From a virus: DNA of 8,437 bases. Positions 1 through 8,412 of this stretch are shown piece after piece; position 1 is the first letter of the stretch; each line of letters opens with the position of its first letter. The notes under the pieces are model-generated. The model made no database searches and had not been told where the DNA came from. It worked only from the letters and a program-made list of their open reading frames with translations. The position numbers and the translations under genes were made by a program. The stretch lies in the UHGV virus genome UHGV-1436539; one strand, 5' to 3'.

Positions 1-140
1 AAATGCCGGTGCATGATCCGTCATCAGAATCCTTTGATTGGGAAACTATCTTTGAAAGCAGTGATCGCTGTGGTGAGACTGTAGCGCGGACATGTCTATT
101 TGGTCAGAGACGGACATCTCAATTTAGCTACTGCAATATG

Positions 141-173
141 AGTGCGCATAATGTACGACTCGTTATGTTGAAA
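141..173 (+). other. Degenerate dif-like XerCD site at the left prophage junction, with expanded central region
   Basis: AGTGCGCATAA-TGTACGACTCG-TTATGTTGAAA. The XerC arm and the first 4 central nt match the canonical dif at 8385-8412 and the XerD arm matches 9/11, but the central region is 11 nt instead of 6. Confidence 0.7.
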
Positions 174-207
174 AGGCCGCTGCGAAAATCGAATCCCGCA
201 GCGGCCT
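174..207. terminator. GC-rich stem-loop, putative (bidirectional) intrinsic terminator downstream of the minus-strand CDS 240-1502; alternatively part of the phage att structure
   Basis: Perfect 11-bp inverted repeat AGGCCGCTGCG (174-184) / CGCAGCGGCCT (197-207) with a 12-nt loop. Only a 3-nt T tract follows on either strand, so terminator function is uncertain. Confidence 0.45.
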
Positions 208-239
208 CTTTAGCATAACGTCATTGTGCGAACCAATAA

Positions 240-1502
240 TTATCCCTCTATTATATTTTCCCTTTCCAATACCTCACGAATTTGTTGGAATACAGCACTT
301 ATATTCCCTTTAGGGAATCTTATTTGCCCTAATCCATTTATGTTGGAGAACTCTTCACATCCGTCTTCAAGAAGAATGATTGCCCGTTCAAAGCCCAGCT
401 TACCTTGAAAAAGTCCTGCTTCATGTATGACATTCATTCTTGCTTGGACTTTTCCTTCTTGAGTTTCATCTTCGGCAGTCATCAAAATAAAGGCAAATGC
501 AGCCTGCTCTAACATTTGATTAAGCCTTGTTATGTTTGTCACCCCGGCAATTGATACTCTATTAAATTCATCATAGGGTTGATGCAATTTATCTTTTATG
601 AAATCTTTAAGTTCAAGCCAAAGCTTTGATTTCCCATGACCAATAAATATATTTATTCCCGCATCTTTTTCACGCATCATCTTCCCCTCTAAGTTATTGA
701 TATGCTTGTATAATTTATCAATAAGTTTTTGTAGTTCATTACAAGATGAGTATGCACCCATAACTTCTGCAACTCGAACCCTGAGATTAATGTGTGGTGG
801 TACTCGTATTCCTTCTTGTAATGCCATGTTATCAGAGCTGGTTACTTGTTTTGGAAGGAAAAGTGACAGAATTTGTTTTTCGGATAAGATTTTGCTGTTT
901 TCAATTTTAGATACTAAGTCTTCTAAAAATTTATCTTCAGGTGGAAGGCTTTTTTTCTGTGCATAATATAATGATAAAGCGTCACTTTTTAAATCGTTAA
1001 ATATTGAATTTACCTCATTTGCTTTTTTAATCTCTTCCAATAAATCTTCTTTAGTTAAGTCACACTTATTTAATATATAATCAGTTATTTGTTCTGGATC
1101 ATATTCTACCCAATCACCTATACTTTTCATTCCCTCGGTTAAATATCCACCCATATTTTGAAATGGGCTGTTAAATCCCCAATCCTTGTTAAACACCGCC
1201 CCAGTCGGAGGTTTTTGCAGGCCATTGTAATAGACCCTTGATTGATAGCCTATAAATGAACCTGACCAAGATTCATCTAGTTTACTGGTTAACGTTAAAA
1301 CTGATGAAAGTTTGCTCACATCATAGTTACTTAGCTTCTTTAACTTATCCATTAAATCAAGGTATTGATTTGCGCTCACTGTGTAATCTCCAAGCCTAAA
1401 ATTTGCACAATTTAAAACGTGCAGTGTAGGTAATACTGCACGTTTGTACCATTCGTGGTACTTAATCCTTTTGTTTGGAAGACATGAGATCTTCTGCTGC
1501 AT
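240..1502 (-). CDS. Two-domain protein: N-terminal domain of unknown function (~aa 1-280) plus C-terminal TIR-like (PF10137-type) putative effector domain; candidate defence or toxin effector
   Basis: Long minus-strand ORF (~420 aa from ATG at 1500-1502; the track's TTG at 1518-1520 would give 426 aa). The C-terminal region (plus-strand coordinates ~306-659) has the motif series IFIGHGKS ... AFAFILMTAEDE ... ARMNVIHEAGLFQGKLGFERAIILLEDG, which matches my recollection of the TIR-like family consensus (FIVHGHD ... FAVVLLTPDD ... RxNVIFELGYFxGKLGRxRV). No strong SD at any candidate start, so the start is uncertain. Confidence 0.6.
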   Translation of the reverse strand: MQQKISCLPNKRIKYHEWYKRAVLPTLHVLNCANFRLGDYTVSANQYLDLMDKLKKLSNYDVSKLSSVLTLTSKLDESWSGSFIGYQSRVYYNGLQKPPTGAVFNKDWGFNSPFQNMGGYLTEGMKSIGDWVEYDPEQITDYILNKCDLTKEDLLEEIKKANEVNSIFNDLKSDALSLYYAQKKSLPPEDKFLEDLVSKIENSKILSEKQILSLFLPKQVTSSDNMALQEGIRVPPHINLRVRVAEVMGAYSSCNELQKLIDKLYKHINNLEGKMMREKDAGINIFIGHGKSKLWLELKDFIKDKLHQPYDEFNRVSIAGVTNITRLNQMLEQAAFAFILMTAEDETQEGKVQARMNVIHEAGLFQGKLGFERAIILLEDGCEEFSNINGLGQIRFPKGNISAVFQQIREVLERENIIEG

Positions 1503-1644
1503 CTTTAGAGTAGTTATCAATCAGATAACCTAAAATCTCTGTCCATGTAATTGTTTTTCCTAGTTTTACACTGGCGTTTATAGCCAGTCGTTCTAGTTTC
1601 ATTTTTCTTTCTTCCGTCACGTTATAAGTCGTGCGCTTTGCCAT
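1462..1644 (-). CDS. Small (60 aa) putative ribbon-helix-helix (CopG/Arc-like) DNA-binding protein; candidate repressor or antitoxin
   Basis: ATG-initiated ORF divergent from gII. The N-terminus MAKRTTYNVTEERKMKLERLA has the basic beta-strand plus helix pattern typical of RHH proteins. It overlaps the 5' end of the downstream CDS 240-1502 (ATG at 1502) by ~40 nt, suggesting an operon. Confidence 0.5.
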   Translation of the reverse strand: MAKRTTYNVTEERKMKLERLAINASVKLGKTITWTEILGYLIDNYSKDAAEDLMSSKQKD

Positions 1645-3398: not shown

Positions 3399-3641
3399 AT
3401 GAAAATTCTGTCTACTGTTAAATCTAAAGTTGCTCTGGCTTCAACTGCGCTTTTTGTTTCTGCAAGTTCTTTTGCGGCTGAAGGCGCTACAGGCGGTACT
3501 GATTATGCAGGTCAGGCAATGGATGCATTACTGACTCAGGCAAATGATCTCATTGGTAAAGTATGGCCTGTTGTTGTGGCTGTGGTTGGCGCTGGGCTTG
3601 CTATTCGTATTTTCAAAAAATTCTCTTCAAAAGCGGTTTAA
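3399..3641 (+). CDS. gVIII: Major coat protein pVIII precursor (80 aa; predicted 26-aa signal peptide, mature ~54 aa)
   Basis: Signal peptide ends ...SASSFA before AEG..., as in Ff pVIII. It has an acidic N-terminus, a hydrophobic core and a basic C-terminus [12 protein letters not shown], closely matching the Ff/IKe consensus ...FKKF(T/S)SKA. SD GGAG lies 8 nt upstream. Confidence 0.93.
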
Positions 3642-3687: not shown

Positions 3688-4908
3688 ATGAAAAGGAAAA
3701 TATTAATTCTTTCCGCTGTCCTCATTTCTCCTTTTTCACATGCTGATTCATGGGAAAGCATTACTAAATCTACTTATCAAAGCTCTGCCTACGCTGAAAG
3801 TAAGCAAATAACCAATCAGGATGGCTCTAAGACAACGGTTTACTATATTGATGCTGCTATGCAGGCCTCCGCTTGTCAGGGTGCTAAATCCAGTGCTCAG
3901 AGTGTATTTACTCAGGTTAAACTAACTTATGAGGGTATCTGGCCTGATTCTGAATTCCGTCTTGTTTTTACTGGTGATTGTACTTACAGCGATTCACCAG
4001 GGCAGAAGGATAAATATTGGTCTTTAACGGCTTATATTGTTGGTGATATTCAGCGTTCTGTTCCTGATGCAAAACCTACTGACCCGACACCAGAAGAAAT
4101 TTGCGAAGCGAAGCCGCCAGAAGAAGGTGTATTTAATAATGTCGATTCATATGATGGTGGTCGCTATATCTACTATAACGGCTGTGAATATGAGGCTACT
4201 GGTGTCATTGTTTGTCAGAATGATGGTACTGTTTGTGCTGCTACATGGAAGCCTACAGGGAGCGTAGCAGATCCATCTGATAAACCTTCAACTCCTCAAA
4301 ATGGCGGTGGTGAATCTGGCGGTGGTGAATCTGGCGGCGGTGAATCCGGTGGCGGTAGTTCTGGCGGTGGTTCCAGTGGTTCCAGTCTTTCTAAAGGTGA
4401 TATTCAGACTGCTATCGAAGGTGCTTCACCCAAAATAGCCAGCGATATTCATGATAAATTAACAGAGAAAGATACATCCTCAGATGATAAAAAATATGCT
4501 GATGAACAGACAAATAATAATATATTACGTCTGGATGATTCCTTAAATAACCTTACCCGTGGAGCGGGGCGTTTTGCTGACCCTTCTGGCGGTGATTCAC
4601 GCTATGGAAAGGGCGATTCTGAACTAGATTCTGCTTCAACTTTGGCAGATTCCGAATTAGGGATAGCAAAAGATTCGCATGGTGCTTTATGGGAAGCATT
4701 TTTAAATAAAGATGCTATGCTTCCTAACTTACCCAATGGTAACGGCTGCTCTGATTTTATTATTTTCCCCGGGGAGGTTTATCAGATTGATATTGGTTGC
4801 GATAAATTACTGACTATTAAAGATGTTCTTTCATGGGTTTTTTATTGCCTTACGTTCTGGTATGTCTTTACTTCTTTAACTTCATTGCTTCGTAAAGGGG
4901 GTGAGTGA
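3688..4908 (+). CDS. gIII: Attachment/adsorption protein pIII (406 aa) with signal peptide, N-terminal putative receptor-binding domain, N1-like TolA-binding domain, Gly-rich linker and C-terminal membrane anchor
   Basis: Signal peptide [47 protein letters not shown] resembles the Ff N1 segment YANYEGCLWNATGVVVCTGDETQCYGTW. Linker (GGGES)3(GGGSS) and a hydrophobic C-terminus are present. The ATG at 3688 is chosen over the upstream alternative start of the track ORF, which overlaps gVIII. Confidence 0.9.
4303..4386 (+). repeat. Tandem 15-bp coding repeats (GGCGGTGGTGAATCT-like, about five and a half units) encoding the Gly/Ser/Glu-rich pIII linker
   Basis: Near-identical 15-nt units are directly visible, translating to [25 protein letters not shown]. 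Confidence 0.85.
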
Positions 4909-5249: not shown

Positions 5250-6344
5250 ATGGCGGTTCATGTAGTAACAGGCAAATTAGGCTCAGGTAAGACACTTGTT
5301 AGTGTTTCCCGAATACAGGAAAGACTTGCTAAGGGTTGTCCTGTTGCCACTAATCTTGATCTTAAATTGCATAATATGCCTATGGTTGGTCGTTATGCGA
5401 AAAAAACGCGCGTTATTCGCGTTCCTGATAAGCCTTCATTAAATGATTTACTGGCTATTGGTATTGGGAATACATCTTACGATGAATCCCGCAATGGCCT
5501 TCTGGTACTTGATGAATGTGGTACTTGGTTTAATTCCCGTTCATGGGGTGATAAAGACAGACAACCTGTTATTGACTGGTTTTTACATGCCCGTAAATTA
5601 GGCTGGGATATTATATTTTTGATTCAGGATATTTCGATAATGGATAAGCAAGCTCGTCTGGCGCTTGCTGAACATGTTGTTTATTGCCGACGTTCAGATA
5701 AATTAAATATCCCTTTTATTGGCTCCATTATGAATTTGGTTTCAGGGGCGCGATTTTCTTTACCAAAAGTACACTTTGGTATTGTTAAGTATGGTGACAA
5801 TATTAACTCAATCACTGTTGATAAGTGGATATATACCGGAAAATCTCTTTATTCTGCTTACAATACCAAACAAGCGTTCACAGATAATTATCCTCATGGC
5901 GCATTTTCGCTTTTGCCTCCATTTATCACACACGGTCAATTTTCTGTTCATAGGGGATTTAATTATTATATGCGCCTCACTAAAATTTATTTCCGTAAAT
6001 CGAATCGTCTTATATTAATGCTTTCTTTTCTGGTGCTGGGACTTGGTCTTGGTTTCTGGTTCCAGTCTGGAAAGAATGTTGATGAAATCACAGCTATTAA
6101 ATCTTCTTATGCTGAACAGGCGAGGGCGGTAACGCCTGATTCGTCCAGTGATTTACCCCGACTTTCTATTAATTCTTTTTCACAACTTGGTTTTGACGTT
6201 TCTGTTACATTTATTGATGCTAAAGGTATGAAATATCAGTATTTTGATTTAATTAAAGATGGTTATTCCGTTGATATTAAAGATGCCTGTCGTATTTTTA
6301 TCAGAAAAGGCCGTTATTTACAGACCGTTACCTGTCAGGAGTAA
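5250..6344 (+). CDS. gI: Assembly ATPase pI (Zot-like, 364 aa)
   Basis: Strong similarity to Ff pI throughout, including MAVxxVTGKLGSGKTLVSV (Walker A), LLVLDECGTWFNxRSW (Walker B region) and DWFLHARKLGWDIIFL. Confidence 0.95.
   Translation: MAVHVVTGKLGSGKTLVSVSRIQERLAKGCPVATNLDLKLHNMPMVGRYAKKTRVIRVPDKPSLNDLLAIGIGNTSYDESRNGLLVLDECGTWFNSRSWGDKDRQPVIDWFLHARKLGWDIIFLIQDISIMDKQARLALAEHVVYCRRSDKLNIPFIGSIMNLVSGARFSLPKVHFGIVKYGDNINSITVDKWIYTGKSLYSAYNTKQAFTDNYPHGAFSLLPPFITHGQFSVHRGFNYYMRLTKIYFRKSNRLILMLSFLVLGLGLGFWFQSGKNVDEITAIKSSYAEQARAVTPDSSSDLPRLSINSFSQLGFDVSVTFIDAKGMKYQYFDLIKDGYSVDIKDACRIFIRKGRYLQTVTCQE
5970..6344 (+). CDS. gXI: pXI-like protein from an internal in-frame start of gI (124 aa, membrane-anchored C-terminal part)
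   Basis: In-frame ATG at codon 241 of gI (MRLTKIYFRK...), the same codon position and local motif as the Ff gene XI start (MKLTKIYLKK). Confidence 0.55.
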   Translation: MRLTKIYFRKSNRLILMLSFLVLGLGLGFWFQSGKNVDEITAIKSSYAEQARAVTPDSSSDLPRLSINSFSQLGFDVSVTFIDAKGMKYQYFDLIKDGYSVDIKDACRIFIRKGRYLQTVTCQE

Positions 6345-6351
6345 TATTATT

Positions 6352-7617
6352 ATGCGCTCTTTTATTATTGCTTTTTTATTTACCTGTTCATTCTGCGTTT
6401 CTGCTGAAACTGTTAATTTAAATAATTCGTCTGTTCGCTCATTTGTTCAGTGGTATTCGTCAAAAACTGGCAAGCCTGTTATTGTTAATCCTGATGTTAA
6501 AGGGAACGTAACCGTATTTAATGCTGATGTTAACCCAACAAATATTGATGATTTCTTTAAGTCTGTTCTCAATGCTAACGGGTTTGTTATGCTTTCCGGT
6601 AATCCTGCGGTTGTCTCTTTGCCGTCTAAATTACCGTCACAAATGGCTTCTGACTCCGGCGACTCTGATAATCAGTCTTATGATTCTTTTCCTTCTGAGC
6701 CATCTTACCAGCCAGTACCTGTGGCGCTTACGGTCAGAAATTTTAAGCTGACAAAAGTTAGATCGTCCGATGTTCAGCAACTGATTAAAATTTATCTTGA
6801 TTCTAATGGTGGTGGTAATGTCGTGGATTATCCAGGCAATAACTCGCTGATTGTTTCTGCGCCTGACGAGCTGCTGCCGGTTCTGTCCGATTTTATCAAT
6901 TCTGTGGATGTTGCCCGCGATCAGGTTCTCATTCAGTCGCTGATGTTTGAAACCAGCTTGTCTGATGGCGTTGATTTATCGTTTGCGGCAGGTTCTGCAT
7001 CCGGTCATAAGGTTGCGGGGGGCTTTAATACTTCTGCACTGGGTAGCGCTCTTTCTACGGCGGGCGGTTCTTTTGGTATTTTTGATGGTAACGTGTTGGC
7101 GCTGTCTCTGCGTGCTGTCCAGAGTAATTCACGCTCTAAGGTGATTTCAACGCCGCGTATTCTTACTCAGTCTGGTCAGACTGGTTACATTTCCGTAGGT
7201 AAGAATGTGCCGTTTATCACCGGAAAGGTAACGGGCGAATCTGCCGGCGTAAATAATCCGTTTCAGACTATCGAGCGTCATGATGTTGGCGTTTCTCTCA
7301 AGGTAACGCCTGTTGTCATGGGTAACGGGCAACTAGTTCTGACTATCGACACTCGCGCTGATTCAATCAGCAATGATGATCAGGCATCCGATATTATTAC
7401 TAATCAGCGCCAGATTCAGACGACAGTCCAGATTAAGGATGGTCAGACGTTGTTATTGGGGGGGCTTATCGATTCATCGTTCAGCAATGCCGAGCGTTCA
7501 GTTCCAGTTATAAGTAAAATTCCTCTTATAGGCTGGATGTTCAGTAGCAAGGCAGACAGCAATGAACAGCGTATTATGTATATTTTGCTTACAGCACATA
7601 TCATTCGTCCACTTTGA
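6352..7617 (+). CDS. gIV: Outer-membrane secretin pIV (421 aa) for phage extrusion
   Basis: Signal peptide MRSFIIAFLFTCSFCVSA. Extensive similarity to Ff pIV, including the C-terminal secretin block VPFITGKVTGESAGVNNPFQTIER, QTLLLGGL and SKIPLIG. ATG at 6352 with SD AGGAG; the upstream track start overlaps gI and is rejected. Confidence 0.95.
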   Translation: MRSFIIAFLFTCSFCVSAETVNLNNSSVRSFVQWYSSKTGKPVIVNPDVKGNVTVFNADVNPTNIDDFFKSVLNANGFVMLSGNPAVVSLPSKLPSQMASDSGDSDNQSYDSFPSEPSYQPVPVALTVRNFKLTKVRSSDVQQLIKIYLDSNGGGNVVDYPGNNSLIVSAPDELLPVLSDFINSVDVARDQVLIQSLMFETSLSDGVDLSFAAGSASGHKVAGGFNTSALGSALSTAGGSFGIFDGNVLALSLRAVQSNSRSKVISTPRILTQSGQTGYISVGKNVPFITGKVTGESAGVNNPFQTIERHDVGVSLKVTPVVMGNGQLVLTIDTRADSISNDDQASDIITNQRQIQTTVQIKDGQTLLLGGLIDSSFSNAERSVPVISKIPLIGWMFSSKADSNEQRIMYILLTAHIIRPL

Positions 7618-7658
7618 TGGATAGCGGGTAGGTGCGTGAGCCCTGCTCGCTATCCATC
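7616..7658 (+). other. Stable hairpin immediately after gIV: candidate packaging signal or gIV transcript terminator structure
   Basis: Perfect 11-bp inverted repeat GATGGATAGCG (7616-7626) / CGCTATCCATC (7648-7658) with a ~21-nt loop and no following T tract. In Ff phages the packaging-signal hairpin lies directly after gene IV. Confidence 0.4.
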
Positions 7659-7686
7659 AAATGGACATTATTGATTGGGGTAACTA

Positions 7687-8346: not shown

Positions 8347-8384
8347 CCGCACCGGTAACGCCAGTTCCCGCCATCCTTACCATT

Positions 8385-8412
8385 GGTGCGCATAATGTAT
8401 ATTATGTTAAAT
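8385..8412 (+). other. dif: Canonical dif site (XerCD chromosome-dimer resolution site) forming the right prophage junction
   Basis: Exact match to the E. coli dif 28-mer GGTGCGCATAA-TGTATA-TTATGTTAAAT as I know it. Confidence 0.85.

Follow-up and report, generated by a model that had tools for sequence, protein, structure and literature searches.

Our analysis indicates that positions 141-237 of the window (the whole stretch of DNA analysed here, 8437 bp in length) very probably constitute the attL junction of a filamentous prophage integrated at dif, made by XerC strand exchange from a CTXphi-type attP folded in the viral (+) strand, attP(+). The window, a complete metagenome scaffold (ENA ERZ28661258 scaffold_3749, locus L056), contains one filamentous prophage, which carries the full inovirus gene set and is integrated at the chromosomal dif site. 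Its features are given below with their coordinates and strand.

1-136, minus strand: left flank, probably the terminal ~136 nt of an IS1202-family ("ISNCY") IS; inverted-repeat end, 4 nt from the XerC arm
141-151, plus strand: XerC arm of site A, AGTGCGCATAA; 10/11 against the E. coli dif XerC arm GGTGCGCATAA
152-162, plus strand: centre of site A, phage-derived, 11 nt, TGTACGACTCG; its first four bases, TGTA, equal the start of the dif centre TGTATA
163-173, plus strand: XerD arm of site A, phage-derived, TTATGTTGAAA; 9/11 against the dif XerD arm TTATGTTAAAT
174-207, no strand: apical GC-rich hairpin; predicted tip and spacer of attP(+), possible terminator of the minus-strand cargo gene
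207-233, minus strand: inverted partner site B, consisting of GGTTCGCACAA (233-223), TGACG (222-218) and TTATGCTAAAG (217-207); spacer 5 nt
234-237, plus strand: CAAT, predicted base of the attP(+) stem, pairing with ATTG 8381-8384 in the circular genome; last conserved base before the variable cargo
240-1379, minus strand: cargo gene, GTG start at 1379, for a 379-aa TIR-domain protein (PF10137 CAP12/Pycsar TIR, E 4.8e-23)
1462-1644, minus strand: regulator-like ORF, 60 aa
1814-2866, plus strand: gII, 87% identical to YpfPhi gII
after gII, plus strand: gV and small virion genes
3399-3641, plus strand: gVIII
between gVIII and gI, plus strand: gIII and gVI
5250-6344, plus strand: gI (Zot)
to 7617, plus strand: gIV (secretin), followed by two small ORFs
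8381-8395, plus strand: phage ATTG and the phage's own XerC arm GGTGCGCATAA; other half of site A in the circular genome and left part of the regenerated dif
8385-8412, plus strand: regenerated perfect dif (attR), 28 bp; phage XerC arm, host centre TGTATA and host XerD arm TTATGTTAAAT

The backbone of this phage is of the UPphi type (PMC7307601), and its attP module is identical to that of YpfPhi and CUS-1. Matches in the phage collection are limited to short stretches of gene I and gene IV of the I2-2, IKe and Erwinia PEar phages, and the window therefore has no close deposited phage genome. A Pfam scan of nine proteins, taken from outside the small gVII, gIX, gVIII and gVI ORFs, detected no recombinase domain, and no Rfam family reached its gathering threshold anywhere in the window. 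In the core genes, T accounts for 33.5% of the plus strand, a T-richness also seen in viral strands of the filamentous group. Since an Ff-type gII nick sequence (GTTCTTTAATAGTGGACT, with up to three mismatches) has no match in the window, the identity of the packaged strand is taken from gene orientation and base composition. An ORF at 3-218, which spans the IS end, the Xer site and the hairpin, was rejected as a gene because its left and right parts belong to different elements.

The initial annotation had described positions 141-207 as an XerC arm followed by TGTA, a divergent centre and a near-consensus XerD arm that runs into a perfect 11-bp hairpin. This account of the sequence is correct: the two arms match those of dif at 10 and 9 of 11 positions, respectively, and direct reading of the hairpin gives a perfect 11-bp stem between 174-184 (AGGCCGCTGCG) and 197-207 (CGCAGCGGCCT) with a 12-nt loop, which the XerD arm of site A abuts directly at 173/174. 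After TGTA the centre of site A is unrelated to that of dif, and homology with the dif centre is found on the XerC side only; the shared TGT(A) is the homology that lies beside the XerC cleavage point. The extent of the feature, on the other hand, had been set too short, as the inverted site at 207-233 was overlooked. Because site B and the long fold described below go past the 11-bp stem, the feature covers 141-237 rather than 141-207. A relaxed dif-like pattern (at most two mismatches per arm and a spacer of 4-13 nt) matches three sites in the window against 0.03 per shuffle, the third of them being the inverted site B, and the perfect 28-bp E. coli dif at 8385-8412 has a chance expectation of 0. 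Sites A and B are separated by 33 nt, and site B is found in every locus that has site A.

The sequence to the left of site A reads as an IS end rather than as host chromosome. Matches of E. coli sequences to the window begin at 136-142, and annotated ISNCY elements located beside plasmid Xer sites have an end that matches positions 50-139 at 96-97%. The same kind of IS end abuts dif or attL in six other loci (L004, L013, L015, L018, L044 and L054). Related copies of the IS encode a transposase of the ISNCY_2 model (NF033594, E 3e-114), begin with TTGTCAAAGCT and end with AGCTACTACAA, and, whether chromosomal or plasmid-borne, are spaced 4 nt from an XerC arm; the flank in the window probably includes the first transposase codons. 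Members of the IS1202 family are known to insert ~5 bp away from XerC arms, and targeting of dif has been described (PMC10132070; bioRxiv 10.1101/2022.12.17.520857). The flank at 1-136, and this part of the window only, resembles the ISAba32/ISAjo2 subgroup of that family in having the IS end 4-5 nt outside an XerC arm with the start of the transposase proximal to the Xer site. Like the related copies, members of the family occur on chromosomes and plasmids, some of them with passenger genes (PMC10132070; bioRxiv 10.1101/2022.12.17.520857), while the neighbouring Xer site differs, being a phage attL here as opposed to dif or pdif.

Passenger-carrying copies of the IS hold, just inside their far end and downstream of a SIR2 or STM4504 gene, a stretch that is 93% identical to positions 164-237 and comprises the XerD arm, the hairpin and site B. 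More than 1000 E. coli records contain such a stretch, with 550 of the places being on plasmids. The STM4504 homologues found in phage and IS contexts share 60% protein identity and ~72% DNA identity, compared with 93% for 164-237, and the 74-nt module is therefore far better conserved than the gene that adjoins it. Keyword searches of PMC10132070 and bioRxiv 10.1101/2022.12.17.520857 brought up no mention of an attP half inside passenger-carrying IS.

The composition of the prophage junctions locates the point of exchange. In a sister contig with the same phage and the same TIR gene (L055, circularly permuted or tandem), the junction consists of CCATCCTTACCATT, GGTGCGCATAA, TGTACGACTCG and TTATGTTGAAA in direct succession. 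This joins the right XerC arm of the window (8385-8395) to its left centre and XerD arm, and, as judged from the sequence, the L055 junction represents the native attP. The left XerC arm is GGTGCGCATAA in two chromosomal contexts of the same phage with the same TIR cargo (L052 and L053) and also in L005, L024, L032 and L049, where the true E. coli empty-site flank, ending in TTGGTTTATGTT, abuts the same junction. After IS-like ends, the arm is either AGTGCGCATAA (the window and L054) or AGTACGCATAA, and in Y. pestis the junction with the chromosome has GGTGCACATAA whereas the tandem one has GGTGCGCATAA. The right junction, meanwhile, is constant in every prophage examined and is made of the phage right end, the phage XerC arm, TGTATA and TTATGTTAAAT. 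A left arm that changes with its upstream neighbour for one unchanged phage is the signature of exchange at the boundary between the XerC arm and the centre. Similarly, since the left XerC arm follows the target, A141 came from the integration target and not from the phage; A141 is mismatched with C233, a position at which the phage's own G pairs.

Site A (142-176) is present in 118 of the 5426 complete E. coli genomes, on chromosomes only, with a median of 2 and a maximum of 13 copies per genome. These multiple copies fit tandem arrays, which are seen in L020 and in Y. pestis (L007/L008). In other E. coli genomes, a query made of flank plus dif found the same hipA-side flank directly joined to an intact dif. 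Given that site A is rare and that the same flank is joined to an intact dif elsewhere, the left site is phage-borne and not a generic flank. The outcome that the initial annotation had named as contrary to its reading, namely a left site that is merely the flank of prophage-free chromosomes, is thus not what these genomes display.

The complementarity around the hairpin outlasts its 11-bp stem. A repeat finder returned an inverted repeat of 24 nt with 88% identity between 161-184 and 197-220, and in a DNA fold of positions 131-250 the plus strand from 139 to 235 forms one long imperfect hairpin (-26.8 kcal/mol, z -5.63), with none of the 200 shuffles as good. When the circular attP(+) was reconstructed, the fold became more stable (-31.3 kcal/mol, z -6.87), its stem reaching the CAAT and ATTG listed above. 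The initial annotation had suggested looking for a forked hairpin at both prophage ends; the left end gives one, whereas the right end folded alone has no significant structure (z -1.82). From the base, the predicted fold consists of a stem of XerC arms, an asymmetric bubble of 7 nt against 1 nt (the 5' bulge), a stem of XerD arms and the GC tip. Within the centre of site A, the TG and CG are paired, the 5' bulge is made up of the intervening 7 nt, and the XerD arm at 163-173 pairs with 207-220. Sites A and B are thereby predicted to pair on the (+) strand into a single forked hairpin of ~95-100 nt, in which, according to both the prediction and the comparative data, the XerC and XerD arms are duplex around an unpaired centre. 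Because complementarity continues through site A and site B, the hairpin recognized at the outset is the tip of a larger structure. The proposal in the initial annotation that it could belong to a folded single-stranded attP is borne out by the fold with site B and by the compensatory changes among relatives.

Both arms resemble one Xer consensus, and arm pairing alone is therefore no proof of the fold. As this complementarity exists by construction, we place the weight on matched departures from the consensus and on the conserved geometry of the bulge. Among 23 distinct enterobacterial attPs (alignment A2), 95.6% of the cells pair and compensatory changes occur in 15 of the 37 pairs; none of 500 shuffles equals the alignment on any of the five measures, and pairing falls to 31-50% when the partner is slid by 1-3 columns. 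For instance, a compensatory change from T:A to A:T is found in the XerD arm at A2 column pair 30:74, and a change from G:C to A:T is found at the end of the XerC arm at column pair 1:98, where an own arm that begins with A is matched by a site B that ends in T. The apical stem covaries as well, with GC/CG swaps at A2 columns 36-42. A set of 10 sequences that includes three with unrelated apical hairpins (L009, L010 and L026) gave similar results, with 94.6% of the cells pairing and double changes in eight pairs, values that no column shuffle reached (0/500). In those three loci the XerC stem, the 5' bulge and the XerD stem are kept while the tip hairpin is unrelated.

The same architecture recurs in viral contigs. 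A pattern scan requiring GCGCATAATGT, then 5-9 nt and then TTATG, in which TGT is fixed by the pattern itself, gave 99 distinct matches, 54 of which have an inverted partner and the same forked shape over a total span of 69-156 nt. The tips of these 54 folds differ widely in sequence and length. Among relatives, the interior of the centre is hypervariable and its length is most commonly 11 nt, with 10 to 13 nt also occurring, while the outermost two centre bases at either end, which pair with site B, are almost always retained. TGT is retained in all relatives that were found through the gII protein. YpfPhi of Y. pestis, E. coli UM146 (L001) and several further loci are 100% identical to the window over positions 142-237, and the corresponding sequence of Brenneria alni is 87% identical.

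Based on these observations, the following route of integration can be proposed. In the circular single-stranded (+) genome, site A (GGTGCGCATAA, TGTACGACTCG and TTATGTTGAAA) would base-pair with the inverted site B to form the forked hairpin, whose passive tip would be the 11-bp GC hairpin. This pseudo-duplex and the chromosomal dif would be bound by host XerC and XerD, and XerC would cut the top strand of each at the boundary of XerC arm and centre and then swap the two strands, an exchange that the shared TGT would stabilise. Replication would turn the resulting pseudo-Holliday junction into a prophage. The expected left product is the target XerC arm followed by the phage centre and phage XerD arm, and the expected right product is the phage XerC arm followed by the host centre and host XerD arm, that is, the intact dif at 8385-8412. 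New phage would arise from rolling-circle replication across tandem copies. Here XerCD binding, catalysis by XerC only, the use of single-stranded DNA, resolution by replication and irreversibility are inferred by analogy with CTXphi, and the duplex left site would likewise be a poor XerCD substrate if it behaves as CTXphi attP1 does. In the duplex prophage the fold is lost and the centres of sites A and B are 11 and 5 bp, respectively, so that excision by Xer is unlikely. The suggestion in the initial annotation of a CTXphi-type junction with an over-long centre agrees with the 11-nt centre, site B, the fold and the XerC-side make-up of the junctions.

The composition of the junctions alone cannot distinguish a single-stranded (+) hairpin from a duplex site A used in the manner of VGJphi. 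In the latter case, the double-stranded replicative form would recombine through site A alone, by XerC exchange with resolution by replication, the process would be reversible, and site B and the hairpin would be irrelevant. Such a route predicts the same junctions (a left one composed of target XerC arm, phage centre and phage XerD arm, and a regenerated dif at the right), and the restriction of dif homology to the XerC side (TGTA) is also a property of VGJphi (PMC4246890). We nevertheless regard it as highly improbable. VGJphi has a single duplex attP of ~29 bp with a 7-bp centre, whereas the phage studied here has two inverted sites and an 11-bp centre in site A, and the analogous 12-bp attP1 of CTXphi is reported to be unsuitable as a duplex (PMC4246890). 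Moreover, a duplex route leaves unexplained a site B that is universal in relatives and covaries with site A, as well as the retention of the flanking TG and CG, which pair with site B, around a hypervariable interior. A TLCphi-type IMEX, with a degenerate XerD arm, a dif-identical centre and XerD acting first, was ruled out, as the XerD arm matches at 9 of 11 positions and the centre differs after TGTA.

The folded attP(+) should also be weighed against the idea, to which we give very little credence, that the hairpin at 174-207 is only an intrinsic terminator of the minus-strand cargo gene and that its dif-like surroundings are junction debris. On the minus strand, a GC stem followed by TTTT does lie 33 nt past the cargo stop codon (240-242), and in IS1202-type elements devoid of site A's XerC arm and centre, 164-237 is retained downstream of passenger genes, which fits the 3' end of a gene. 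A consensus terminator scan makes no call at this hairpin, because its loop is 12 nt long (the limit being 8 nt) and only 4 T follow the stem. A terminator alone, however, would not account for the ~30 additional base pairs to either side of the stem, which run through the Xer arms with compensatory changes, nor for the relatives in which the tip is swapped for unrelated hairpins while arms and bulge are retained. The hairpin may terminate cargo transcription in addition to its role in attP, but termination cannot be the whole explanation.

The region adjoining attP carries a variable cassette. The cargo protein encoded in the window also matches the PADLOC PDC-S35 and TIR effector models and is probably an anti-phage defence effector; the exact protein is found in the same phage context on 12 contigs. 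The variable cassette covers exactly 238-1397, and homology with all relatives ends at 237. At its right border we observed an XerC-arm-like 10-mer at 1400-1410, inverted relative to site B, and a conserved strong hairpin at 1415-1445 (z -5.6). A complete Xer site was not found at this border, where only the XerC-arm-like 10-mer is present and the XerD arm is absent.

The least credible alternative holds that site B and the XerC-arm-like sequence at 1400-1410 are the borders of a cassette mobilised by Xer or by IS1202, comparable to the dif modules of Acinetobacter, with any attP role being secondary: it draws on the exact limits of the cassette in all relatives, on the flanking inverted 10-mers (TTCGCACAAT-like, with the outer faces of the XerC arms pointing at the cargo), on the insertion of IS1202-family elements ~5 bp outside XerC arms (PMC10132070) and on the 93%-identical 164-237 of IS-borne passenger modules, but 1400-1410 lacks an adjoining XerD arm, L006, L013 and L043 do not have the 10-mer, site B has a 5-bp spacer, none of 5426 genomes searched with a chimeric query carries IS-borne SIR2 cargo beside the phage side of the cassette, and the left limit at 237 is more simply the base of the attP(+) stem. 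As SIR2 was never seen in the phage context, the XerD arm is absent and the 10-mer is missing in some relatives, the mechanism of cassette exchange is speculative. A broader form of the idea is also unlikely, though conceivable. In it, 164-237 would be a portable docking or 3'-end module of dif phages and of dif-hunting IS1202 "transporter" IS, with single defence genes (TIR, SIR2, STM4504, Doc and PD-(D/E)XK) exchanged at one set position lying 4 nt outside the XerC arm of site B. If this were true, the cassette bracketed by the inverted XerC-arm-like sequences at 223-233 and 1400-1410 would be the enterobacterial counterpart of the Acinetobacter dif modules, and either XerCD or the IS1202 transposase would mobilise it.

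The CTXphi attP(+) of Vibrio cholerae, reportedly described by Val et al. 2005, offers a model for the folded attP(+) proposed here. In CTXphi, attP comprises two inverted dif-like sites with centres of 12 bp (attP1) and 5-7 bp (attP2), ~90 bp apart, which fold in (+) ssDNA (PMC4246890). XerC alone exchanges one strand pair and replication completes the process, and the duplex prophage cannot excise (PMC4246890). The phage in the window shares with CTXphi the inverted dif-like sites with one long and one short centre (11 and 5 nt, respectively, compared with 12 and 5-7 bp), the predicted forked hairpin in (+) ssDNA, homology with dif only beside the XerC arm, junctions that fit XerC-only exchange, and tandem prophages. 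Additionally, in both cases attP adjoins a divergently transcribed regulator and a region of cargo. The two differ in the distance between the sites, which is 33 nt here compared with ~90 in CTXphi, and the whole structure therefore measures ~95-100 nt as opposed to ~150. They also differ in sequence, with no similarity outside the Xer arms, and in host, which here belongs to the Enterobacterales, and the mechanism here is drawn by analogy.

Within the enterobacteria, the resemblance is closer. YpfPhi and CUS-1 have been listed as CTXphi-class phages (PMC4246890), and an inverted pair of XerC/XerD sites has been described for YpfPhi (PMC4266046). Positions 142-237 are 100% identical to the YpfPhi junction of Y. 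pestis NCTC5923 (L007), and since YpfPhi is already placed in the CTXphi class, the finding is already explained by that assignment. The window shares with YpfPhi (Yersinia pestis) and CUS-1 (E. coli O18:K1:H7) integration at dif, regeneration of an intact dif at the 3' end, tandem copies and a variable accessory segment that adjoins attL. It differs from YpfPhi in that its gII protein is only 87% identical and its morphogenesis genes are IKe/I2-2-like, and from both phages in that its cargo is a TIR-domain protein in place of YPO2271/2272 or CUS-1 orf1/orf1a, its left neighbour is probably an IS1202-family element and its left XerC arm begins with A. The UPphi phages of Enterobacterales (PMC7307601) have in common with the window IKe/I2-2-like structural genes, YpfPhi-like gII and gV, and dif integration. 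In them, too, reverse-oriented accessory ORFs come just past the dif-like site on the left, and the dif on the right is preceded by two small ORFs; the paper describing them mentions only a dif copy at the genome start (PMC7307601). During superinfection, YpfPhi is reported to integrate preferentially between resident copies, at the imperfect junction site (PMC4266046), a behaviour that is not predicted by a simple CTXphi model.

A CTXphi-type mechanism is thus already known or proposed for the sequence-identical module of YpfPhi and CUS-1, and what our analysis adds is the covariation evidence and the junction series for a folded attP. These results provide comparative support for a CTXphi-like folded attP that had earlier been proposed for the YpfPhi lineage from sequence inspection only. 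They also place the attachment module of YpfPhi/CUS-1 in a metagenomic enterobacterial inovirus with a UPphi backbone and TIR cargo. The position adjacent to attP emerges as a hot spot for single defence or toxin genes in such phages, and the probable IS1202-family neighbour indicates that several dif-exploiting elements stack at one locus. Prophages of this family should be delimited by the boundary between XerC arm and centre in the left site and by the XerC arm of the right dif, and annotation of the left "dif-like" site as a second functional dif should be avoided.

The predicted attachment site of this prophage (attP), a forked hairpin of the CTXphi type on the (+) strand, is shared without change with a phage of another structural lineage. 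Window positions 142-237 are 100% identical to positions 4386-4481 of L007, the junction of the filamentous phage YpfPhi in Yersinia pestis NCTC5923. In contrast, the gII proteins of YpfPhi and of the UPphi-type phage in the window are only 87% identical, and the structural genes of the two come from different lineages. Identity of the attP module despite this divergence therefore points to either its modular transfer between inovirus backbones or a very strong constraint on it. Forked-hairpin attPs were also found on many viral contigs from IMG/VR (loci L060-L175), with differing XerC arms, such as ACTGCGCATAA, ACCGCGCATAA, and ATTGCGCATAA, and elaborate tips of two or three hairpins reaching up to 156 nt. 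The CTXphi-type attP design seems to be widespread and diverse beyond Vibrio and Enterobacterales.

Adjoining attP, window positions 238-1397 form a sharply delimited, variable cargo cassette, whose content and right border are as follows:

Within 238-1397: a TIR-domain (CAP12/Pycsar-type) protein of 379 aa
1400-1410: XerC-arm-like 10-mer at the right cassette border, AATTTGCACAA in the window and AATTCGCACAA in most relatives
1415-1445: 13-bp hairpin following the 10-mer, strongly conserved (z -5.6)

In related phages, the same position is occupied by Doc toxin, STM4504/CBY_0614, PD-(D/E)XK nuclease, CxxC protein, or hypothetical genes, and is apparently a defence/toxin hot spot of the phage family. 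The 10-mer is inverted relative to the XerC arm of site B, the inverted dif-like partner within attP; it has no XerD arm beside it and is missing from three of the related loci (L006, L013, and L043). The hairpin that follows could be the terminator of the gene for a 60-aa regulator or an origin element.

Two further repeats lie elsewhere in the phage genome. In the gIII attachment protein, the Gly/Ser-rich linker with its GGGES repeats is specified by a 15-nt unit that occurs five times in tandem at positions 4287-4376; its copy number reportedly varies among UPphi phages (PMC7307601). Directly after gIV, positions 7613-7661 carry an inverted repeat with 20-nt arms that are 90% complementary, a candidate for the gIV terminator or for a packaging or origin hairpin of the phage intergenic region.

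The distal half of attP (164-237), comprising the XerD arm, the GC hairpin, and the inverted site B, has a 93%-identical copy in IS1202-type elements, at these positions in three related loci:

L002, 4001-4071
L003, 4118-4195
L004, 5001-5073

The elements concerned carry passenger genes, and the copy sits immediately internal to their far end, 3' of SIR2 or STM4504 genes; it is much more conserved (93%) than the adjacent gene (~72% DNA identity). On chromosomes it is found at dif, and many plasmids also have it: it turns up in over 1000 E. coli records and at 550 places on plasmids.

The left flank of the prophage is not chromosomal: positions 1-140 are probably the end of a dif-targeting IS of the IS1202 family ('ISNCY'), together with the probable first codons of its transposase.

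Within 1-140: terminal inverted-repeat end of the IS (...GGACATCTCAATTTAGCTACTGCAA)

Only 4 nt separate this end from the XerC arm of attL, the left prophage junction, which means that several elements exploiting dif lie side by side at one locus. The prophage-bearing E. coli contig L005 holds another dif-like junction (AGTGCGCATAA-TGTGTTGA-ACATGTTAAAT, 811-839), located upstream of the prophage, ~3.4 kb before the phage attL. The hipA-side chromosomal flank is present there a second time, immediately before this junction, which probably represents a small element distinct from the prophage, dependent on Xer and part of the same array. Site A, the dif-like site at attL, is present as many as 13 times on some E. 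coli chromosomes, which suggests very long arrays, tandem or mixed, of these prophages at dif.
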